Below, piece by piece: positions 4,354-44,406 of a stretch of 64,000 bases of DNA. The stretch lies in sequence record NC_054933.1, one strand, 5' to 3'. Positions within the stretch are counted from its first letter, which is position 1; every line of letters begins with the position of its first letter. The notes below the pieces were generated by a model. It did no database searches. It saw only the letters and a program-made list of their open reading frames with translations, and had not been told where the DNA came from. Origin of the DNA: Escherichia phage teqhad. The translations under genes were made by a program, and so were the position numbers.

Positions 4354-4743
4354 TTAACGATTAAAATCAGCCGCAATTGTTTCCGCAACAATTTGTGCAG
4401 CAACAATTAGACGTTCATCTGCATTACCGCAATAATCATCTTCAAGGCGTTCACCGCATGAAGTCATAATAAATTTAGCACCGGCGTTTAGGGATTCTGT
4501 AGTATGTTTGCGCATTAATTCAATCCATTTATTACTTACTTCACGATCGATAGCTTCATAATACGCATGACGAGCAGGTGCAGATTTAATTTTGTTCTGA
4601 ATAACTTCCATTGCATTATCAGAAAGAGACAAAACCCATGCTCGACGAATTTTATTTTGGTTTTGTGGATTTGATTCAGAACGCACGTGTTTTGGCTGAA
4701 TATCTTTTACATCAACAGTATAATTCACAGTAATTTTAGTCAT
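4354..4743 (-). CDS. rpbA: RNA polymerase binding protein A
   Basis: 129 aa; position directly downstream of gene 45. Confidence 0.85.
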
Positions 4744-28584: not shown

Positions 28585-29139
28585 TCACTTTGAAATCATA
28601 ATTGGAATGACAGAATCAAGATAAGTCTTTAGCGCAATAGCTTCGTCTTTGGTAAATGTGACAATATGTGCTCGAAAATCGTCAATTTGACGAATAGATA
28701 CTACATCTCCCTCTTCATAGCATTTTGACACATTTAAAATAGTTTCATCATTCTGATTGCAAGCGTTAGTAATAATAGCATTGCAATTTTTAAACCATTT
28801 TAAACTGTGTTTTCTTTCATTAGAATAATAAAAATATTTAATCTTATCTATAAAACTATCCCAATGGATAACTGATAAGCATATTGACTCGCTTTCAATA
28901 TTAAATCCTGGGCATGAAGAATAAAAATGAATTTTATGCTCATCATTAATGCTTACAATTTTATCAGTATAAGGATTTTCAATTTGGGTTAAATGAATGA
29001 TTTCACTAGGCGTAAAATATAGCATATCATCTTCTTGTGTCAAACGATACATATTATTTACTTTTTCTATAGCCAATTCACCAAAAAGTGAACTAACTTC
29101 TAATACTAATCGTTTCATATTAATCCTTTTTATTGGCAC
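28585..29139 (-). CDS. hypothetical protein (paralog pair B)
   Basis: 184 aa; C-terminal VSIRQ...KDEAIALKTYLDSVIPIM. Confidence 0.5.
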   Translation of the reverse strand: MPIKRINMKRLVLEVSSLFGELAIEKVNNMYRLTQEDDMLYFTPSEIIHLTQIENPYTDKIVSINDEHKIHFYSSCPGFNIESESICLSVIHWDSFIDKIKYFYYSNERKHSLKWFKNCNAIITNACNQNDETILNVSKCYEEGDVVSIRQIDDFRAHIVTFTKDEAIALKTYLDSVIPIMISK

Positions 29140-29398
29140 GAATTTGTTCTAAAATTTTAGAGTATTCCTTTGTATCAGATTTACGTACAATCGATACACT
29201 ATACGGCATACTATCGGTGTCTTTTATAAAGCGTTCCAAATGACACTCTAATAAAATTTCTGGATTATAAATCGTGTACATCAAATTACCTGTTGCTCCA
29301 CGATATTGACAGATTTCTACTGATTGAACACCATTCCATAATTTTGTTAAGACCAAATCACCTACTTCTAATTTAGGAAAGCCCATGTTATTCACCAA
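29120..29398 (-). CDS. hypothetical protein
   Basis: 92-aa ORF. Confidence 0.45.
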   Translation of the reverse strand: MVNNMGFPKLEVGDLVLTKLWNGVQSVEICQYRGATGNLMYTIYNPEILLECHLERFIKDTDSMPYSVSIVRKSDTKEYSKILEQIRANKKD

Positions 29399-29573
29399 TT
29401 AAAGTTTCAATATAAGAATCAAGATTTACTTTAGCTTCTTCCATAAGAGTTTTGTATTTAATCTTGTTAGCATGTCCGGAGAAAGCTGATTCATCAATAA
29501 CTGTTGATGTATGAACAGCTCTACTATACGTCTCAATTAATTCTCTTAATTTAAAAGCCTGCTCACTTGTCAT
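29388..29573 (-). CDS. small protein, ~60-aa paralog family member
   Basis: 61 aa, MTSEQAFKLRELIETYSRAV... Confidence 0.5.
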   Translation of the reverse strand: MTSEQAFKLRELIETYSRAVHTSTVIDESAFSGHANKIKYKTLMEEAKVNLDSYIETLIGE

Positions 29574-29705
29574 TACATACTCCTTTGAATCATATCAATA
29601 ATATTGTTCACCAGATTATAGGTAAACATTGGGTAATTATATTGAATCATCACATATATAACAAACAAAACTTTCATTCTCTTCTCCTTGACAGTTGACA
29701 AGATT

Positions 29706-29735
29706 ACTATACCATAACCTTGCCAACTTGTAAAC
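29706..29735 (-). promoter_or_regulatory. T4-type early promoter
   Basis: Minus strand GTTTAC - 18 nt - TATAGT. Confidence 0.55.
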
Positions 29736-29737
29736 CG

Positions 29738-29911
29738 TTAAATGTTGTTTTCAATAAAATTCTGAAGCTTTGTGTGAGCATCAACCATGATTTTCATTTC
29801 TTCCTTTGCGAAAGCTGTACCTCTTTCCCGAGCAGAATACTCATAGTCAGAAACTGCATTAGCATATTCTTCAATTAGCTTCATTAAAAACATCTGCTTT
29901 TCAGTTTTCAT
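29738..29911 (-). CDS. small protein (57 aa), ~60-aa paralog family member; below track cutoff
   Basis: ATG 29911-29909 with AGGUGG SD; MKTEKQMFLMKLIEEYANAVSDYEYSAREGTAFAKEEMKIMVDAHTKLQNFIENNI. Confidence 0.5.
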   Translation of the reverse strand: MKTEKQMFLMKLIEEYANAVSDYEYSARERGTAFAKEEMKIMVDAHTKLQNFIENNI

Positions 29912-30095
29912 TATTCCACCTAATCATTTCAAGATATTGAACTAACTTAGCTTTAGATTTATCCAAATCCTTTTTAGCTGCTTCTATACCGTCGTATGAA
30001 TATCCTTCACAATGCTCAACTGCTAATTGATATGAATCTATTTCAATATCACGTGCTAATTTAATGATTTTTTCAAACTGTTCACGTGTTAGCAT
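29901..30095 (-). CDS. small protein, ~60-aa paralog family member
   Basis: 64 aa, MLTREQFEKIIKLARDIEIDSY... Confidence 0.5.
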   Translation of the reverse strand: MLTREQFEKIIKLARDIEIDSYQLAVEHCEGYSYDGIEAAKKDLDKSKAKLVQYLEMIRWNNEN

Positions 30096-30097
30096 AC

Positions 30098-30301
30098 TTA
30101 AACTCTCGTATTATGATCGATAATTTCATCAAGAAACATATCTAACGCTTCTAAAGCATTATCAACTTTAGCTTCAAGTTCATCAATGCCTTTATTTGCA
30201 ATGCCTGACGAAAACCAAGCAAAGTCACTAAGTTCCTCGTCTGCTTTACGAATTAAAGCTACCAATTCTTTAATCTTATCCGCTTGTTCGATACTAATCA
30301 T
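30098..30301 (-). CDS. small protein, ~60-aa paralog family member (start at [13 protein letters not shown])
   Basis: Internal ATG gives 67 aa and an ATGA-type junction with the upstream ORF. Confidence 0.45.
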   Translation of the reverse strand: MISIEQADKIKELVALIRKADEELSDFAWFSSGIANKGIDELEAKVDNALEALDMFLDEIIDHNTRV

Positions 30302-30489
30302 TATTCCACCACATATGAAAGAGAGAATATTGCACACGCCATGTGAGTTGCAACTTCATCACACATATTATAACGTTTCTTAAGAAGTTCTACAAGTTCT
30401 TCACTAGTAACTTCATCCATGTCGACGAAAAAATCACCATTAATGATGACGTAGATATTTCCTTCTTGATTAAGTGCTTCAATTTTCAT
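30301..30489 (-). CDS. small acidic protein
   Basis: 62 aa; GAGGAG SD. Confidence 0.5.
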
Positions 30490-30517
30490 GATGTTCTCCT
30501 CTTTATCCGATGGTTGT

Positions 30518-30547
30518 ATAGTACCACGGCTCAGACGGAAAGTAAAC
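30518..30547 (-). promoter_or_regulatory. T4-type early promoter
   Basis: Minus strand GTTTAC - 18 nt - TACTAT. Confidence 0.55.
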
Positions 30548-30562
30548 CGGTAAAATGAAAAA

Positions 30563-30580
30563 AGTCTCCCGAAGGAGACT
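30563..30580 (-). terminator. UUCG-tetraloop hairpin
   Basis: Minus-strand RNA AGUCUCC-UUCG-GGAGACU upstream of rI.-1. Confidence 0.5.
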
Positions 30581-30584
30581 AATG

Positions 30585-30971
30585 TTATTCGAGGGAAAGA
30601 AGATACTTACTCTGGTAAAACATTCCAGTAATATCATCTATCGTGCTTTGAATGGCTGGAGGCATTTCTTTATAAATGCTGTTAGATTGGTCTAGTATGC
30701 GATCAATCATTTTAATTATGTCGGTAGGAAGTTTACTGGCATCTGGAATTGAAGGTGTGTATTTTCTACCAGAATACCCCAAATATTGCTCACCAAATTT
30801 ATCAATCAAATCTGGCAACTCGGAGAAAATAAAATCGTATGCTTTGTGTCTAGCATAACTTTTAGTTTCAAAATGTGCAGAATGAAAATAAGCTTGTGCA
30901 GCCATTAATAAACCTAAGTATTCATCTGCCTTTGAAGGTTTTCCACTTTGTGAAAAGTCGCTGAATTTCAT
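30585..30971 (-). CDS. rI.-1: rI.-1-like protein
   Basis: 128 aa; position immediately downstream of rI. Confidence 0.6.
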
Positions 30972-31261
30972 TCAGTCTCCAATTTAATGTTCATAATTCT
31001 AGCGTATGATTGTGCCATCTCCGCGCCTCGTTCTATACATTCAAAATCAGAAGAGCACGGGTCATTTTTATAGGTCGTTCTCATAAAACTATAGAACTGT
31101 TCAGATGATTCTACACTTTTATTTTCAAAAAGCATATAAACGTGTCTAATACCAGATTCCATAAATTTATCAAAATGAGGATCGACATTCGCTTCAATCG
31201 ATGGAGATAAAACAAATGACAATCCTAGCATGGCAAATAGTGCCGTTGCTTTTAAGGCCAT
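30968..31261 (-). CDS. rI: lysis-inhibition regulator RI (periplasmic antiholin)
   Basis: 97 aa; N-terminal signal-anchor MALKATALFAMLGLSFVLSPSIEA. Confidence 0.85.
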   Translation of the reverse strand: MALKATALFAMLGLSFVLSPSIEANVDPHFDKFMESGIRHVYMLFENKSVESSEQFYSFMRTTYKNDPCSSDFECIERGAEMAQSYARIMNIKLETE

Positions 31262-31273
31262 AAAGGCCTCCTA

Positions 31274-31486
31274 TCATTTTTGTCCTGTATTTACTTTATG
31301 CCGATGCACGGCCTTAACTTTATCAAGGTATTTTTCAAAATTTCGCAATCTAGTATAGTCTGCCGGAGATTGGTTGAGTGATACTTCTCGACGCAAAGCT
31401 GAAATAACATTTCCAACTTCCCTACGAATTTCATCTAATTGAAGAACAGTAAGATTGCGAAGTTGCTTTTCAGTTAATTGTAGCAT
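31274..31486 (-). CDS. rI.1: rI.1-like small protein
   Basis: 70 aa; synteny between tk and rI. Confidence 0.55.
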
Positions 31487-31528
31487 ATATACCCCTTTAG
31501 TTAGATAAACCTATTTATAACTTTTGCA

Positions 31529-32110
31529 CTAACCAAGCTTTTTAGTTAATTCATTCCAATGTTTTCTACACAAAGAAACATAAATTTCATCACCAATACA
31601 GATTTGATTACCTTCTTTAACTGGTGTTCCATCTTCCATTAATCGAGCTGTCATAATCGCTTTTTTACCACAATGACAAACTGCCTTTAGTTCAATAAGT
31701 TTATCTGCAATCGCTAAAAGTTCTTTAGAACCTTCAAACAATTTTCCAGCGAAATCAGTCCTTAATCCATAAGCCATAACAGGAACATTATATGTATCAA
31801 CAATTCGACTCAATTGATGCACTTGTTCAGTTTTTAAAAACTGAGCTTCATCTACAAATACGCAATGAATATCTTTTTGTGCTTCAGCCCATTTATAGAA
31901 CTCAAAAATATCCATATCATCCGTAATAATATTCGCTTCCTGCTTAATTCCAATACGAGAAACGACTTCACAGACAGAATCGCGAGTATCAATAGCAGGC
32001 TTAAGAACTAATACACTCATTCCACGTTCTTTATAATTATGTGCAGCAGTCAAAAGAGAAGCAGATTTTCCAGCATTCATTGCTGCATAAGTAAAAATTA
32101 AACTCGCCAT
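31529..32110 (-). CDS. tk: thymidine kinase
   Basis: 193 aa; P-loop AAMNAGKS; Zn-binding CHCGKK...C..H. Confidence 0.92.
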   Translation of the reverse strand: MASLIFTYAAMNAGKSASLLTAAHNYKERGMSVLVLKPAIDTRDSVCEVVSRIGIKQEANIITDDMDIFEFYKWAEAQKDIHCVFVDEAQFLKTEQVHQLSRIVDTYNVPVMAYGLRTDFAGKLFEGSKELLAIADKLIELKAVCHCGKKAIMTARLMEDGTPVKEGNQICIGDEIYVSLCRKHWNELTKKLG

Positions 32111-32111
32111 T

Positions 32112-32300
32112 TTAGTCCTTAGTTAAATTTTCTAAATATGTTTCTAAATCATTTTCAGCTTTATCGATAGATTTTACTAATTCGTAATATGTTTCGGCAT
32201 CTCCATAATCAGAAGATATTTCAAAAGACAAATCCTTTTCTAAACTAATAATTTCACCAACTAAAAATAATATTTCGTTCTTTTGTTCGCGAGTAATCAT
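32112..32300 (-). CDS. small protein, ~60-aa paralog family member
   Basis: 62 aa, MITREQKNEILFLVGEIISLEKD... Confidence 0.5.
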   Translation of the reverse strand: MITREQKNEILFLVGEIISLEKDLSFEISSDYGDAETYYELVKSIDKAENDLETYLENLTKD

Positions 32301-32482
32301 AAGGAATTTATATAATTAATAAGTTCTTGTTCTTTATTATCGAATTCTTTAGAAAGTTCTTCGTACTCGTTTGCACTAAAAGGACCGCATTCATTACAAA
32401 CTTTTTCCAATTCACTATTTTTATCCATAACTTCGTGGATAAGAGAAAAGAGTTTGTCTTTTTGTTCTTTGCTTAGGCTCAT
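32297..32482 (-). CDS. small protein, ~60-aa paralog family member
   Basis: 61 aa, MSLSKEQKDKLFSLIHEVMDKNSELEK... Confidence 0.5.
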   Translation of the reverse strand: MSLSKEQKDKLFSLIHEVMDKNSELEKVCNECGPFSANEYEELSKEFDNKEQELINYINSL

Positions 32483-32652
32483 ATATTAATTTCCAGAAGT
32501 TTTAAAATAATTCGCTTTTGCTTAAATATTTCCACAGTTAAATGATCAGTATCTTTTTGACCAATTCCAATGGCAAAACCTTTATTAACAGCGAGTTCAA
32601 TTAAATTATCAAGTTCACGTAACACTTCATATTGTAACTCAGAACTATTCAT
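32479..32652 (-). CDS. small ORF (57 aa), ATGA-coupled on both sides; below track cutoff
   Basis: ATG 32652-32650 overlaps the upstream stop; MNSSELQYEVLRELDNLIELAVNKGFAIGIGQKDTDHLTVEIFKQKRIILKLLEINI. Confidence 0.45.
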   Translation of the reverse strand: MNSSELQYEVLRELDNLIELAVNKGFAIGIGQKDTDHLTVEIFKQKRIILKLLEINI

Positions 32653-32882
32653 TTTGGTTCACCTTGTTTTACAAAGTCTGGATACGGTTGAAACCCGGAA
32701 TAGAAACCTTCACCGGTATGATTTGTACATCCTTTATTGGAGCAATAGCAATAGCACCAATAATCAAAATCACATATCATTTCATCGTTACATAAAGTAA
32801 AAACAACAGGCCATTTACACTTTTCACAATGGGCATTTTTAAGAATACTAGTTTGGCTCATAACCATGTAACCTTTAAGCAA
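32649..32882 (-). CDS. cysteine-rich small protein
   Basis: 77 aa with 10 Cys (CEKCKW...CYCYCSNKGC). Confidence 0.5.
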   Translation of the reverse strand: MLKGYMVMSQTSILKNAHCEKCKWPVVFTLCNDEMICDFDYWCYCYCSNKGCTNHTGEGFYSGFQPYPDFVKQGEPK

Positions 32883-33070
32883 TATTCTTCTACATGTTGT
32901 TTACGACCTTTCTTATCAATAAAGGTATATTCAACGAATGTTCCAATGTAGTCTTTATCTACATCATGTGGACTATTAATTGGACATTTAGTACGGCAAA
33001 TGCGTTCCCATTGACGAATAATTTCCACTTTGTTTTTAGGATCAAACGGATGTGGGTAATGTACTTTCAT
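32858..33070 (-). CDS. hypothetical small protein
   Basis: 70-aa ORF. Confidence 0.45.
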   Translation of the reverse strand: MKVHYPHPFDPKNKVEIIRQWERICRTKCPINSPHDVDKDYIGTFVEYTFIDKKGRKQHVEEYCLKVTWL

Positions 33071-33521
33071 AATCCACCACTATTAAATCAATATCAGGAG
33101 TAAACATGTCGATTAATTTAGAAACCTTATCCCAATCGCCGCCAGCAATACCACAACCTATGCGTGGAATGTAAATTACCGGTTTAAACAAAAGGGTTTC
33201 TGCCTGTAGATTTAATTCTATCATGCAGTTTACTAAAGCACCATAATCAAGATTAGGACCCGGTTCGTATTGCGTATACAAATTATAGCATATACTAAAT
33301 CCTGTGGGATTATGTTTAAAAACAATAGACATATCGCCTAATTTATCACGAGAACCGTACTCAGTAGTGGTTTTATCTATTTCTAAAATTTTGGGATAGG
33401 CTCTTGCTAATTGACCAGCTACACCTGAACCCATAGTATGAAAACAATTGCACCCGTGCGCAATAATATTACCTTGAAGAAATAGGGCGACAATATCGCC
33501 CTTGATATATTTTACAATCAT
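33042..33521 (-). CDS. macro-domain protein (ADP-ribose binding/processing fold)
   Basis: 159 aa; KGDIV...IIAHGCNCFHTMGSGVAGQLARAYP and PRIGCGIAGGDW match macro-domain glycine-rich motifs. Confidence 0.65.
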   Translation of the reverse strand: MIVKYIKGDIVALFLQGNIIAHGCNCFHTMGSGVAGQLARAYPKILEIDKTTTEYGSRDKLGDMSIVFKHNPTGFSICYNLYTQYEPGPNLDYGALVNCMIELNLQAETLLFKPVIYIPRIGCGIAGGDWDKVSKLIDMFTPDIDLIVVDYESTLPTSV

Positions 33522-34866: not shown

Positions 34867-34925
34867 GTTGTTCTCCTCTTAACTGATAGAAAAATTATAC
34901 CACAGTCAAGAGGAAAAGTAAACAG

Positions 34926-43458: not shown

Positions 43459-43534
43459 TGGTCGAGGCAGTAGGGATCGAACCTACGACCCAGGACTTAG
43501 AAGGTCCTTGCTCTTCCTTCTGAGCTATGCCCCG
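43459..43534 (-). tRNA. tRNA-Arg (anticodon UCU)
   Basis: Manual fold: acceptor CGGGGCA/UGCCUCG, anticodon loop CUUCUAA, T-arm GUAGG-UUCGAUC-CCUAC, CCA encoded. Confidence 0.8.
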
Positions 43535-43538
43535 TAAT

Positions 43539-43614
43539 TGGGGTGACCGATGGGAGTCGAACCCATGACTACGAGAATCACAATCTCGAGTTCTACCAAC
43601 TGAACTACGGCCAC
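43539..43614 (-). tRNA. tRNA with anticodon GUG (His by anticodon; C73 present, no encoded G-1)
   Basis: Manual fold: acceptor GUGGCCG/CGGUCAC, D-stem GUUC/GAAC, anticodon stem CGAGA/UCUCG, loop UUGUGAU, T-loop UUCGACU, CCA encoded. Confidence 0.6.
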
Positions 43615-43728
43615 ATTAATACCTACTCCAACAATCAAGATGTCTTCACACGAAATTAAGAGAAGAGTGATCAGTTCAACCCCTATAATCGCGTCAAGTA
43701 GATATTAATGTGACAGTTGTCACAAATT

Positions 43729-43803
43729 TGGCGGACGTGATAGGATTCGAACCTATAACCAATCGCTTAACAGGCGATCGCTCTGCCATTGAGCTACACA
43801 TCC
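43729..43803 (-). tRNA. tRNA-Asn (anticodon GUU)
   Basis: Manual fold: acceptor GGAUGUG/CACGUCC, anticodon stem AUCGC/GCGAU, loop CUGUUAA, T-arm AUAGG-UUCGAAU-CCUAU, CCA encoded. Confidence 0.7.
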
Positions 43804-43807
43804 AAAT

Positions 43808-43894
43808 TGGTGGGGAGTGGTGGAGTCGAACCACCCGAGTCGCAATGACAATGGATTTACAGTCCACACCGCTACCTCTACGGGATAACTCCCC
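43808..43894 (-). tRNA. tRNA-Tyr (anticodon GUA), long variable arm
   Basis: Manual fold: acceptor GGGGAGU/ACUCCCC, anticodon stem GUGGA/UCCAU, loop CUGUAAA, T-arm GGUGG-UUCGACU-CCACC, CCA encoded. Confidence 0.65.
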
Positions 43895-43907
43895 TTAATT
43901 CTTAATT

Positions 43908-43982
43908 TGGTGGCCCTGGGTGGAATTGAACCACCATCTGGCGATTATGAGTCGCTTGCTTGAACCTTCCAGCTACAGGGCC
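43908..43982 (-). tRNA. tRNA with anticodon CAU (Ile-type as in T4, or Met)
   Basis: Manual fold: acceptor GGCCCUG/CAGGGCC, anticodon loop CUCAUAA, T-arm GGUGG-UUCAAUU-CCACC, CCA encoded. Confidence 0.65.
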
Positions 43983-43983
43983 T

Positions 43984-44059
43984 TGGTGCTGATTGACGGA
44001 ATCGAACCGCCGACCTTCTCATTACAAGTGAGTTGCTCTACCTACTGAGCTAAATCAGC
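43984..44059 (-). tRNA. tRNA-Thr (anticodon UGU)
   Basis: Manual fold: acceptor GCUGAUU/AAUCAGC, D-stem GCUC/GAGC, anticodon loop CUUGUAA, T-loop UUCGAUU, CCA encoded. Confidence 0.75.
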
Positions 44060-44064
44060 AAAAC

Positions 44065-44154
44065 TGGCGGAGGCGATAGGATTTGAACCTATGAGTCGCC
44101 GGAGCGACTGCCGGTTTTCAAGACCGGTGCATTAAACCACTCTGCCACGCCTCC
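44065..44154 (-). tRNA. tRNA-Ser (anticodon UGA), long variable arm
   Basis: Manual fold: acceptor GGAGGCG/CGCCUCC, anticodon stem CCGGU/ACCGG, loop CUUGAAA, T-arm AUAGG-UUCAAAU-CCUAU. Confidence 0.75.
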
Positions 44155-44156
44155 AG

Positions 44157-44230
44157 TCTCCATACAAGGATTTGAACCTTGGACCTCCTGATCCCAAATC
44201 AGGCGCTCTACCAAACTGAGCTACACGGAG
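44157..44230 (-). tRNA. tRNA-Pro (anticodon UGG), CCA not encoded
   Basis: Manual fold: acceptor CUCCGUG/UAUGGAG (G-U pairs), anticodon stem CCUGA/UCAGG, loop UUUGGGA, T-arm CAAGG-UUCAAAU-CCUUG; 2 nt from tRNA-Ser. Confidence 0.7.
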
Positions 44231-44240
44231 TAAATTAAAT

Positions 44241-44314
<74 letters not shown>

Positions 44315-44319
44315 AAATT

Positions 44320-44406
44320 TGGTGCGAGAAGTGGGACTCGAACCCACAAGGAAATCATTCCGCAGCATTTTAAGTGCTGTGCCTTTACCAATTTGACCAT
44401 TCTCGC
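44320..44406 (-). tRNA. tRNA-Leu (anticodon UAA), long variable arm
   Basis: Manual fold: acceptor GCGAGAA/UUCUCGC, anticodon stem CAGCA/UGCUG, loop CUUAAAA, T-arm GUGGG-UUCGAGU-CCCAC, CCA encoded. Confidence 0.75.

Follow-up and report, generated by a model that had tools for sequence, protein, structure and literature searches.

The small genes tk.1 and tk.2, which lie upstream of tk in a T4-like phage, are members of the Pfam family DUF7438 (PF24219). Four further members stand at a second locus on the same DNA. The short gene next to tk.2 encodes a protein of 57 amino acids (aa) and is not detectable as a member; it is an orphan gene that shares a two-gene cassette with a zinc-binding gene. 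The best explanation for the locus, with a probability of about 75%, combines two DUF7438 genes, tk.1 and tk.2; a separate 57-aa orphan carried in a cassette; expression through a chain of ATGA junctions; and, much more tentatively, a possible binding-protein role for the DUF7438 products.

Gene order at the locus

The window, meaning the whole stretch of 64,000 nucleotides analysed here (Escherichia phage teqhad, NC_054933.1), is by its sequence matches that of a T4-like Tequatrovirus. Megablast with positions 31500–33100 returns 665 phage records, nearly all Tequatrovirus; the closest is Yersinia phage PYps55T, at 98.4%. Positions 29570–32483 align to T4 at 96.6%. Placed on the T4 map, the minus-strand order is regB, vs.1, vs, tk.4, tk.3, two extra genes, tk.2, tk.1, and tk, followed by rI.1, rI, rI.-1, mobD.5, mobD.4, mobD.3, mobD.2a, two further extra genes, and mobD.1. 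The locus is the tk-upstream part of the variable accessory-gene region of a T4-like phage.

Within it, the three small minus-strand open reading frames (ORFs) from which the analysis set out are confirmed at 32112–32300, 32297–32482, and 32479–32652 (62, 61, and 57 aa, respectively). The first two, tk.1 and tk.2, occupy the same position between tk and tk.3 as in T4, and their products differ from the T4 proteins by one residue (98.4% aa identity) and two residues (97%), respectively. Plus-strand (antisense) ORFs beneath the tk.1–tk.2 locus have no family support, and no Rfam families were found in the region. The genes considered here are:

32112–32300, minus strand: tk.1 ortholog, 62 aa, DUF7438 member, very acidic (net charge about -10.5); identified by PF24219, phrog_653, and identity to T4
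32297–32482, minus strand: tk.2 ortholog, 61 aa, DUF7438 member, predicted two-helix hairpin; PF24219, phrog_653, and an AlphaFold2 model
32479–32652, minus strand: 57-aa orphan gene (phrog_3452), predicted helical hairpin, absent from T4; phrog_3452 and dN/dS
32649–32861, minus strand: small zinc-binding gene (Pfam Phage_zn_bind), probable start ATG at 32861; PF23895
32858–33070, minus strand: tk.3 ortholog, 70 aa; 91.7% nucleotide identity to T4 tk.3
29388–29573, minus strand: DUF7438 member, 61 aa (phrog_4859), absent from T4; PF24219, 1.7e-15
29738–29911, minus strand: DUF7438 member, 57 aa, intact version of T4 mobD.2a; PF24219, 5.8e-16
29901–30095, minus strand: DUF7438 member, 64 aa, mobD.3 ortholog; PF24219, 1.5e-17, and the T4 map
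30098–30301, minus strand: DUF7438 member, 67 aa, mobD.4 ortholog; PF24219, 2.5e-15, and the T4 map

Six DUF7438 members at two loci

Both tk.1 and tk.2 span the whole 57-position DUF7438 profile, for which the gathering score is 25 bits: tk.1 scores 55.6 bits (E 7.1e-15; residues 2–59 on positions 1–57), and tk.2 scores 69.2 bits (E 3.9e-19; residues 3–61 on the same positions). The ORFs at 29388, 29738, 29901, and 30098 also match end to end, at 57.5, 59.0, 64.1, and 57.0 bits, respectively. Both tk.1 (1.2e-22) and tk.2 (4.4e-25) match phrog_653; the DUF7438 ORFs of the window fall in phrog_653, phrog_4859, and phrog_2758, and these PHROGs cross-match. When a family HMM built from 111 sequences is used to scan the window's 940 stop-to-stop ORFs, it returns exactly these six, the next match having E 0.39.

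The members are diverged. The tk.1 and tk.2 paralogs are about 31% identical, with a Smith-Waterman z (from shuffles) of 8.6; z is 6.5–6.9 against mobD.3, and 4–8.6 among related members. Leave-one-subfamily-out hhalign controls recover five of the six members at 97.4, 97.3, 89.5, 93.0, and 93.6% probability; the sixth, the mobD.2a-type group, reaches 10% (P 0.003 over the full length). Family membership of tk.1 and tk.2 is confirmed far beyond chance.

A sequence-only reading of this DNA had proposed a family of ~60-aa paralogs spread over two loci that are separated by rI and tk. Such a family exists: two members lie upstream of tk and four at 29388–30301 (PF24219), with mobD.5, rI.-1, rI, rI.1, and tk between them. 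The second cluster, described as having three members, has two: tk.1 and tk.2. Nor does the N-terminal motif by which the members had been recognized, M-x-x-x-E-Q/L-x-x-I/L/V-L, define the family. In literal form it matches none of the window's ORFs; loosened, it picks five of the seven ORFs in question along with four unrelated ones. What it describes is a brief pattern of the kind seen where a helix starts.

The family had been catalogued before, as Pfam DUF7438, as PHROGs 653, 4859, and 2758, and as T4 genes tk.1, tk.2, mobD.3, mobD.4, and mobD.2a. The window's tk.1 and tk.2 are near-identical orthologs of the T4 genes and show no difference from them; the window, however, holds six intact copies, whereas T4 has four intact copies and one frameshifted copy. 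A literature search for DUF7438, tk.1, tk.2, and the mobD.x genes found nothing beyond omics tables and one genome-reduction study. Two functional labels attached to family members, "Helicase loader" for phrog_4859 and [quoted passage not shown] for mobD.4, have no support from profile searches and are annotation-transfer errors.

The 57-aa gene: a narrow orphan

Alignment to a common profile, the check that the sequence-only reading had itself named, separates the third ORF from its neighbours: the 57-aa ORF fails to align in Pfam, in PHROGs, with the custom HMM, by Smith-Waterman, and by hhalign. It has no Pfam match to DUF7438 at E ≤ 1, and indeed matches no Pfam family at all. Among PHROGs it matches only phrog_3452 (E 2.8e-33; residues 1–57 on profile positions 1–58 of 58). 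The family HMM, run with all filters off (--max), scores it at -1.4 bits, below 1944 of 2000 shuffles of its own sequence. Pairwise Smith-Waterman z is at most 2.8. Finally, hhalign of the 57-aa alignment against the family alignment, run both locally and globally, yields 0.1–0.5% probability, a value unchanged when a divergent homolog from Sf22 is added. In none of these sequence comparisons can the 57-aa ORF be recognized as belonging to DUF7438.

Might all three ORFs nevertheless be paralogous, the 57-aa copy having diverged past easy recognition after a tandem duplication? The 57-aa ORF has the same size and predicted helix-loop-helix architecture as the family, and the same tandem, ATGA-linked position beside tk.2. 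Its N-terminal stretch resembles that of tk.1 (M-x-x-x-E-(Q/L)-x-x-E-(I/V)-L), and in pairwise comparison it scores highest against mobD.4, slightly above the shuffled background (z 2.8; 6 of 300 shuffles do as well). Yet the true subfamilies cross-match in Pfam and PHROGs, whereas this ORF gives no cross-match at E ≤ 1. Its HMM score is worse than that of most shuffles, and its hhalign probability stays near zero even with the Sf22 homolog, where positive controls reach 89–97%. An exhaustive search of 1.84 billion representatives produced no bridging sequences. The protein is also less acidic and more hydrophobic than DUF7438 members, and the cassette that carries it has its own, independent pattern of presence and absence. 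Descent of all three ORFs from one family is therefore quite unlikely, and the one-family reading is unsupported at the sequence level.

The 57-aa ORF is instead a real gene under purifying selection, confined to T4-like phages. Compared with Sf22 (dS ~1.0) and Ac3, its dN/dS is 0.18–0.30 (that of tk.2 is 0.09–0.41), with length, frame, and ATGA junctions kept. It is an annotated CDS in PYps55T, T6, Sf22, and Ac3. Homologs are 79–98% identical, and the Sf22 version ~50%. A word-indexed search gives 19 matches, all T4-like. The exhaustive hmmsearch, across the same 1.84 billion representatives, adds to the profile's own family just two long repetitive proteins, which Pfam assigns to a tail-spike chaperone and a Por-secretion protein; both are unrelated. 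PHROG 3452, a set of uncharacterised 57–58-aa Tequatrovirus proteins, thus forms a narrow orphan family with no detectable relatives elsewhere, and the window's ORF is an end-to-end member with no difference from it. The label "rI antiholin" given to this ORF in AP018814 is an annotation-transfer error that profile searches do not support.

A more sceptical account would hold that the ORF is a chance open frame in AT-rich DNA, and for that reason absent from the annotation track. Short length fits, as do the absence from T4, the want of a homolog outside the T4-like phages, and the lack of a Pfam family. However, chance would hardly give the dN/dS values above, with frame, length, and ATGA junctions kept against Sf22 at near-saturated synonymous divergence. 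The ORF also has a PHROG family, annotation in several relatives, and an AAGGTG ribosome-binding site, and antisense ORFs at the locus have no family support. A non-gene at this position is very improbable.

A cassette bounded by a short direct repeat

Positions 32484–32856 have no T4 counterpart and hold the 57-aa ORF together with the Phage_zn_bind gene. These two genes make up a 379-bp cassette, placed precisely between two ATGA junctions and missing in T4. The zinc-binding gene matches PF23895 at E 1e-26, and the match starts at residue 8 of a 77-aa ORF with a TTG start. That residue is the ATG at 32861, which is therefore the probable start of the gene. At each edge of the cassette stands one copy of an 8-bp direct repeat (TATGAGCC on the coding strand), and each copy spans a start codon:

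32476–32483: first copy, GGCTCATA (TATGAGCC on the coding strand), at the tk.2 start and the proximal cassette edge; from sequence
32855–32862: second copy, GGCTCATA, at the zinc-binding gene start and the distal cassette edge; from sequence

At the corresponding site T4 has a single hybrid junction. Such a pattern would be expected after a deletion mediated by microhomology, or after an insertion in the opposite sense, and the bounding repeat points to an event of this kind.

The cassette is present, at a coverage of at least 80%, in 437 of 581 matching phage records; T4, which lacks it, is in the minority. Some genomes keep only part. JS10, for example, retains the zinc-binding gene alone from the cassette, and tk.2 directly adjoins it; in UFV-AREG1, a further deletion has fused codons 1–35 of the 57-aa ORF with the tail of tk.3.

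Presence or absence of small genes in a variable region resembles the PeSL-mediated module shuffling of Comeau et al. (2014; PMC4122927). A further likeness lies before the first cluster, where a stem-loop (30580–30563) is followed by a weak GTTTAC-type promoter-like sequence (the two together at 30580–30518). In contrast to PeSL modules, the cassette has the 8-bp repeat at its edges in place of promoter/stem-loop elements: positions 32000–33400 contain no terminator-like stem-loop, and promoter-like matches there are weak (9/12).

Other parts of the region also vary. Positions 29117–29569 are absent from T4, which has lost one family member by this deletion; the start of T4 mobD.1 looks like a fusion. 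A second member is lost in T4 through a 1-nt deletion, a frameshift that truncates mobD.2a. In Sf22 and Ac3, tk.1 is missing and just one gene resembling tk.2 is present. In tblastn searches at 80% identity or more, tk.1 is found in 167 records and T4-type tk.2 in 167 records (a comparison of totals). A divergent tk.2 allele, less than 60% identical, is found in 573 records, and tk.1 is absent from the three of these that were examined (Sf22, Ac3, and JS10). From these counts, tk.1 and T4-type tk.2 seem to travel together, which may reflect either plain linkage of neighbours or functional pairing.

ATGA junctions and possible translational coupling

The ATGA overlaps reported between the three small ORFs are present: the plus strand reads TCAT at 32297–32300 and again at 32479–32482, so that each start ATG overlaps the upstream TGA. 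Two more lie farther upstream, at 32649–32652 and at 32858–32861, where the tk.3 TGA overlaps the zinc-binding gene ATG. Four consecutive junctions thereby chain five genes: tk.3, the zinc-binding gene, the 57-aa gene, tk.2, and tk.1. The arrangement is typical of the genome and not special to the tk.1–tk.2 locus; among 111 junctions in a crude set of the window's genes, 13 are 4-nt ATGA overlaps, more than for any other short junction.

Ribosome-binding signals along the chain are weak or absent. The anti-Shine-Dalgarno pairing energy for tk.1 is +1.6 kcal/mol, that is, no pairing; values for tk.2, the 57-aa ORF, and the zinc-binding gene are -3.3, -4.1, and -3.4 kcal/mol, respectively. Genes that open units (regB, mobD.5, rI, and the 29388 ORF) have energies of -8.2 to -10.2 kcal/mol. 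Sf22, Ac3, and JS10 all retain ATGA junctions, including where the adjacent genes are not the same ones.

The suggestion that these overlaps indicate translational coupling is consistent with the sequence. Weak or absent Shine-Dalgarno signals together with ATGA overlaps fit coupling, especially for tk.1, which is most likely translated by ribosomes that have just finished tk.2. Similar chains occur in T4-type phages; the likeness is that four 4-nt start/stop overlaps follow one another and that the downstream genes have Shine-Dalgarno sequences which are weak or lacking. Here, the arrangement is known from sequence and is common in the genome.

Transcription and expression

A consensus scan found no terminator-like site and no good promoter-like site in the regB–tk stretch; the scan gave 28 promoter matches, compared with 27.7 expected in shuffled sequence. 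Of the strong promoter candidates for the unit ending in tk.1 and tk, the nearest is:

34894–34922, minus strand (34922 to 34894): promoter-like site TTTACT-17-TATAAT with TG, upstream of regB; consensus scan, 10/12

The tk.1 and tk.2 genes lie about 2.4 kb downstream of this site, a distance at which the tk-cluster genes are probably delayed-early. By pattern, the tk.1–tk.2 locus contains no MotA-box middle promoter.

In the supplementary tables of a T4 omics study (PMC9697503), Tk.1, Tk.2, and Tk.3 are classed as early-RNA/middle-protein, and MobD.3 and MobD.4 as early/early. These classes fit a promoter-distal tk cluster and a promoter-proximal mobD cluster, and imply that the T4 proteins were quantified. 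T4 mutants lacking nrdC.11 to mobD.3 are viable (PMC9825161). The T4 orthologs, then, are expressed early and are partly dispensable.

Predicted structure and possible function

The AlphaFold2 model of tk.2 is a hairpin of two helices, residues 5–30 and 37–60 (pLDDT 93). The 57-aa protein is modelled with helices at 3–27 and 32–52 (pLDDT 79). The two models share the same gross hairpin; this is a generic fold, and the likeness of the models cannot decide homology. Foldseek found nothing significant with the 57-aa model and, in BFVD, only uncharacterised phage proteins with the tk.2 model. Sequence searches of the PDB returned nothing below E 0.02, and NCBIfam gave no match. Weak PDB matches to 14-3-3 and to an "addiction module antidote" (E 0.16–0.5) did not improve with a profile and were set aside.

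Conservation in DUF7438 falls mainly on a/d heptad positions: 11, 14, 15, 18, 21, 25, and 28 in helix 1; and 40, 43, 47, 50, 54, 57, 58, and 61 in helix 2. The conserved polar residues lie near the termini (E6, Q7, K10, D48, and E/D59, in tk.2 numbering), and on the model they would form a small patch where the hairpin is open. Every member is acidic, tk.1 and mobD.4 strongly so (net charge about -10) and the other four of the six mildly.

A conserved a/d core, a polar patch, and no catalytic signature can be read as marks of non-catalytic binding proteins. Rop/ROM and similar hairpins, which dimerise into four-helix bundles, share with the DUF7438 model an antiparallel helical hairpin. The resemblance is an analogy only: there is no sequence relationship to Rop/ROM (13% identity), and thousands of unrelated hairpins score alike. 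With odds somewhat below even, DUF7438 proteins may be non-catalytic binding proteins, possibly paired as Rop-like four-helix bundles. Early in infection, their partners would be host or phage molecules, and the diverged paralogs would supply different specificities, for example in host takeover or counter-defence. Searches found no link to a particular target, nor an annotated homolog with a function.

The proteins might, alternatively, be accessory subunits or regulators of tk, nrdC, and rI (acting in nucleotide metabolism or lysis timing), or acidic DNA mimics that block restriction, and not general host-binding modulators. Location lends this some appeal, since both DUF7438 loci lie within the nrdC to tk region and tk.1 ends 1 nt before the tk start. 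Charge does likewise: known DNA mimics carry strong negative charge, as do tk.1 and mobD.4. But DUF7438 copy number, and even the presence of tk.1, varies although every phage compared retains tk; T4 can do without mobD.2a and mobD.3; only two of the six paralogs are strongly acidic; and no similarity to a known DNA mimic or enzyme subunit was found. We consider such roles unlikely, and retain host- or phage-directed binding as the preferred, if tentative, reading.

A bolder version of the binding model would make tk.1 and T4-type tk.2 an obligate, translationally coupled heterodimer, forming a four-helix bundle. Combinatorial hairpin pairs would then be drawn from the six DUF7438 paralogs, to which the 57-aa hairpin might belong as a hyper-diverged seventh; T4-like phages would swap the pairs at ATGA junctions and direct them against different host factors or defence systems. 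This is a long shot.

Significance

For annotation, the result adds little beyond tidiness: names for the T4 members date back to the annotation of that genome, and Pfam already holds the family as a DUF. The 57-aa ORF, however, should be annotated as a real gene, and not as a DUF7438 member.

For the phages themselves, the comparison shows the T4 reference to be a reduced version of the region, with one family copy deleted, one frameshifted, and the 57-aa and zinc-binding cassette missing. Start/stop overlaps appear to be the exact points at which modules of the region are swapped or dropped. If the DUF7438 proteins are host-directed binders, the six-copy family would be convenient for deletion screens on panels of defence systems.

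Edges of the Two-Gene Cassette

The 379-bp cassette of two genes (the 57-aa ORF and the Zn gene) is absent from T4 and is bordered on both sides by copies of a direct repeat of 8 bp, which reads GGCTCATA on the plus strand and TATGAGCC on the coding strand:

32476-32483, first repeat copy, across the tk.2 start codon
32855-32862, second repeat copy, across the Zn gene start codon

At the corresponding site T4 carries a single hybrid junction, as expected if the cassette had been removed by microhomology-mediated deletion. The 57-aa protein P0019 of Escherichia phage UFV-AREG1 is a chimera in which the 57-aa ORF supplies residues 1-35 and tk.3 (DUF7202) the tail. This arrangement implies an additional deletion in UFV-AREG1, which would have taken out the Zn gene.

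Upstream of the cassette, the tk.3 ortholog overlaps its neighbor, the tk.4 ortholog, by 29 nt in both the window and PYps55T, and by 4 nt in T4:

33042-33521, minus strand, tk.4 ortholog; its label in relatives is macro-domain or A1pp phosphatase

Downstream lie tk.2 and tk.1 (32112-32482). tk.1 was found at 80% identity or more in 167 records of the phage collection, as was the T4-type tk.2 (167 records at the same threshold); a tk.2 allele below 60% identity occurs in 573 records. All three genomes examined that carry the latter allele (Sf22, Ac3, and JS10) lack tk.1.

Several public product names at these loci, NCBI protein names among them, receive no support from profile searches, and are annotation-transfer errors: [quoted passage not shown] for mobD.4; "Tk.2" for T4 tk.3 (NC_000866); "rI antiholin" for the 57-aa ORF and "tail assembly protein" for the Zn gene, both in T6 record AP018814; and "helicase loader" for phrog_4859.

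The First Cluster and Its Upstream Region

Two elements lie ahead of the first cluster:

within 30518-30580, minus strand, G+C-rich stem-loop followed by a T run (AGTCTCCTTCGGGAGACT TTTTTC), just after rI.-1
within 30518-30580, minus strand, promoter-like sequence GTTTAC...TACTAT, after the stem-loop and ahead of mobD.5 and the first cluster

Together these two elements resemble the PeSL terminator/promoter composites known from T4-like phages (PMC4122927). Elsewhere on the minus strand, Rfam places ten clustered tRNA genes at 43462-44406, one of them barely over threshold (30.3 bits).

Within the first cluster, T4 has both a broken and a missing DUF7438 gene. The intact 57-aa gene at 29738-29911 corresponds to T4 mobD.2a (38 aa; positions 4550-4666 of the T4 sequence, L003), a frameshifted copy whose frame is broken by a 1-nt deletion; the C-terminal half can still be read in another T4 frame. 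Moreover, T4 has no counterpart of the stretch 29117-29569, in which lie:

29120-29386/98, 92-aa ORF
29388-29573, DUF7438 gene

The start of T4 mobD.1, MMSEAKRLVL, has the appearance of a fusion, with the opening codons of this lost DUF7438 gene joined to mobD.1.
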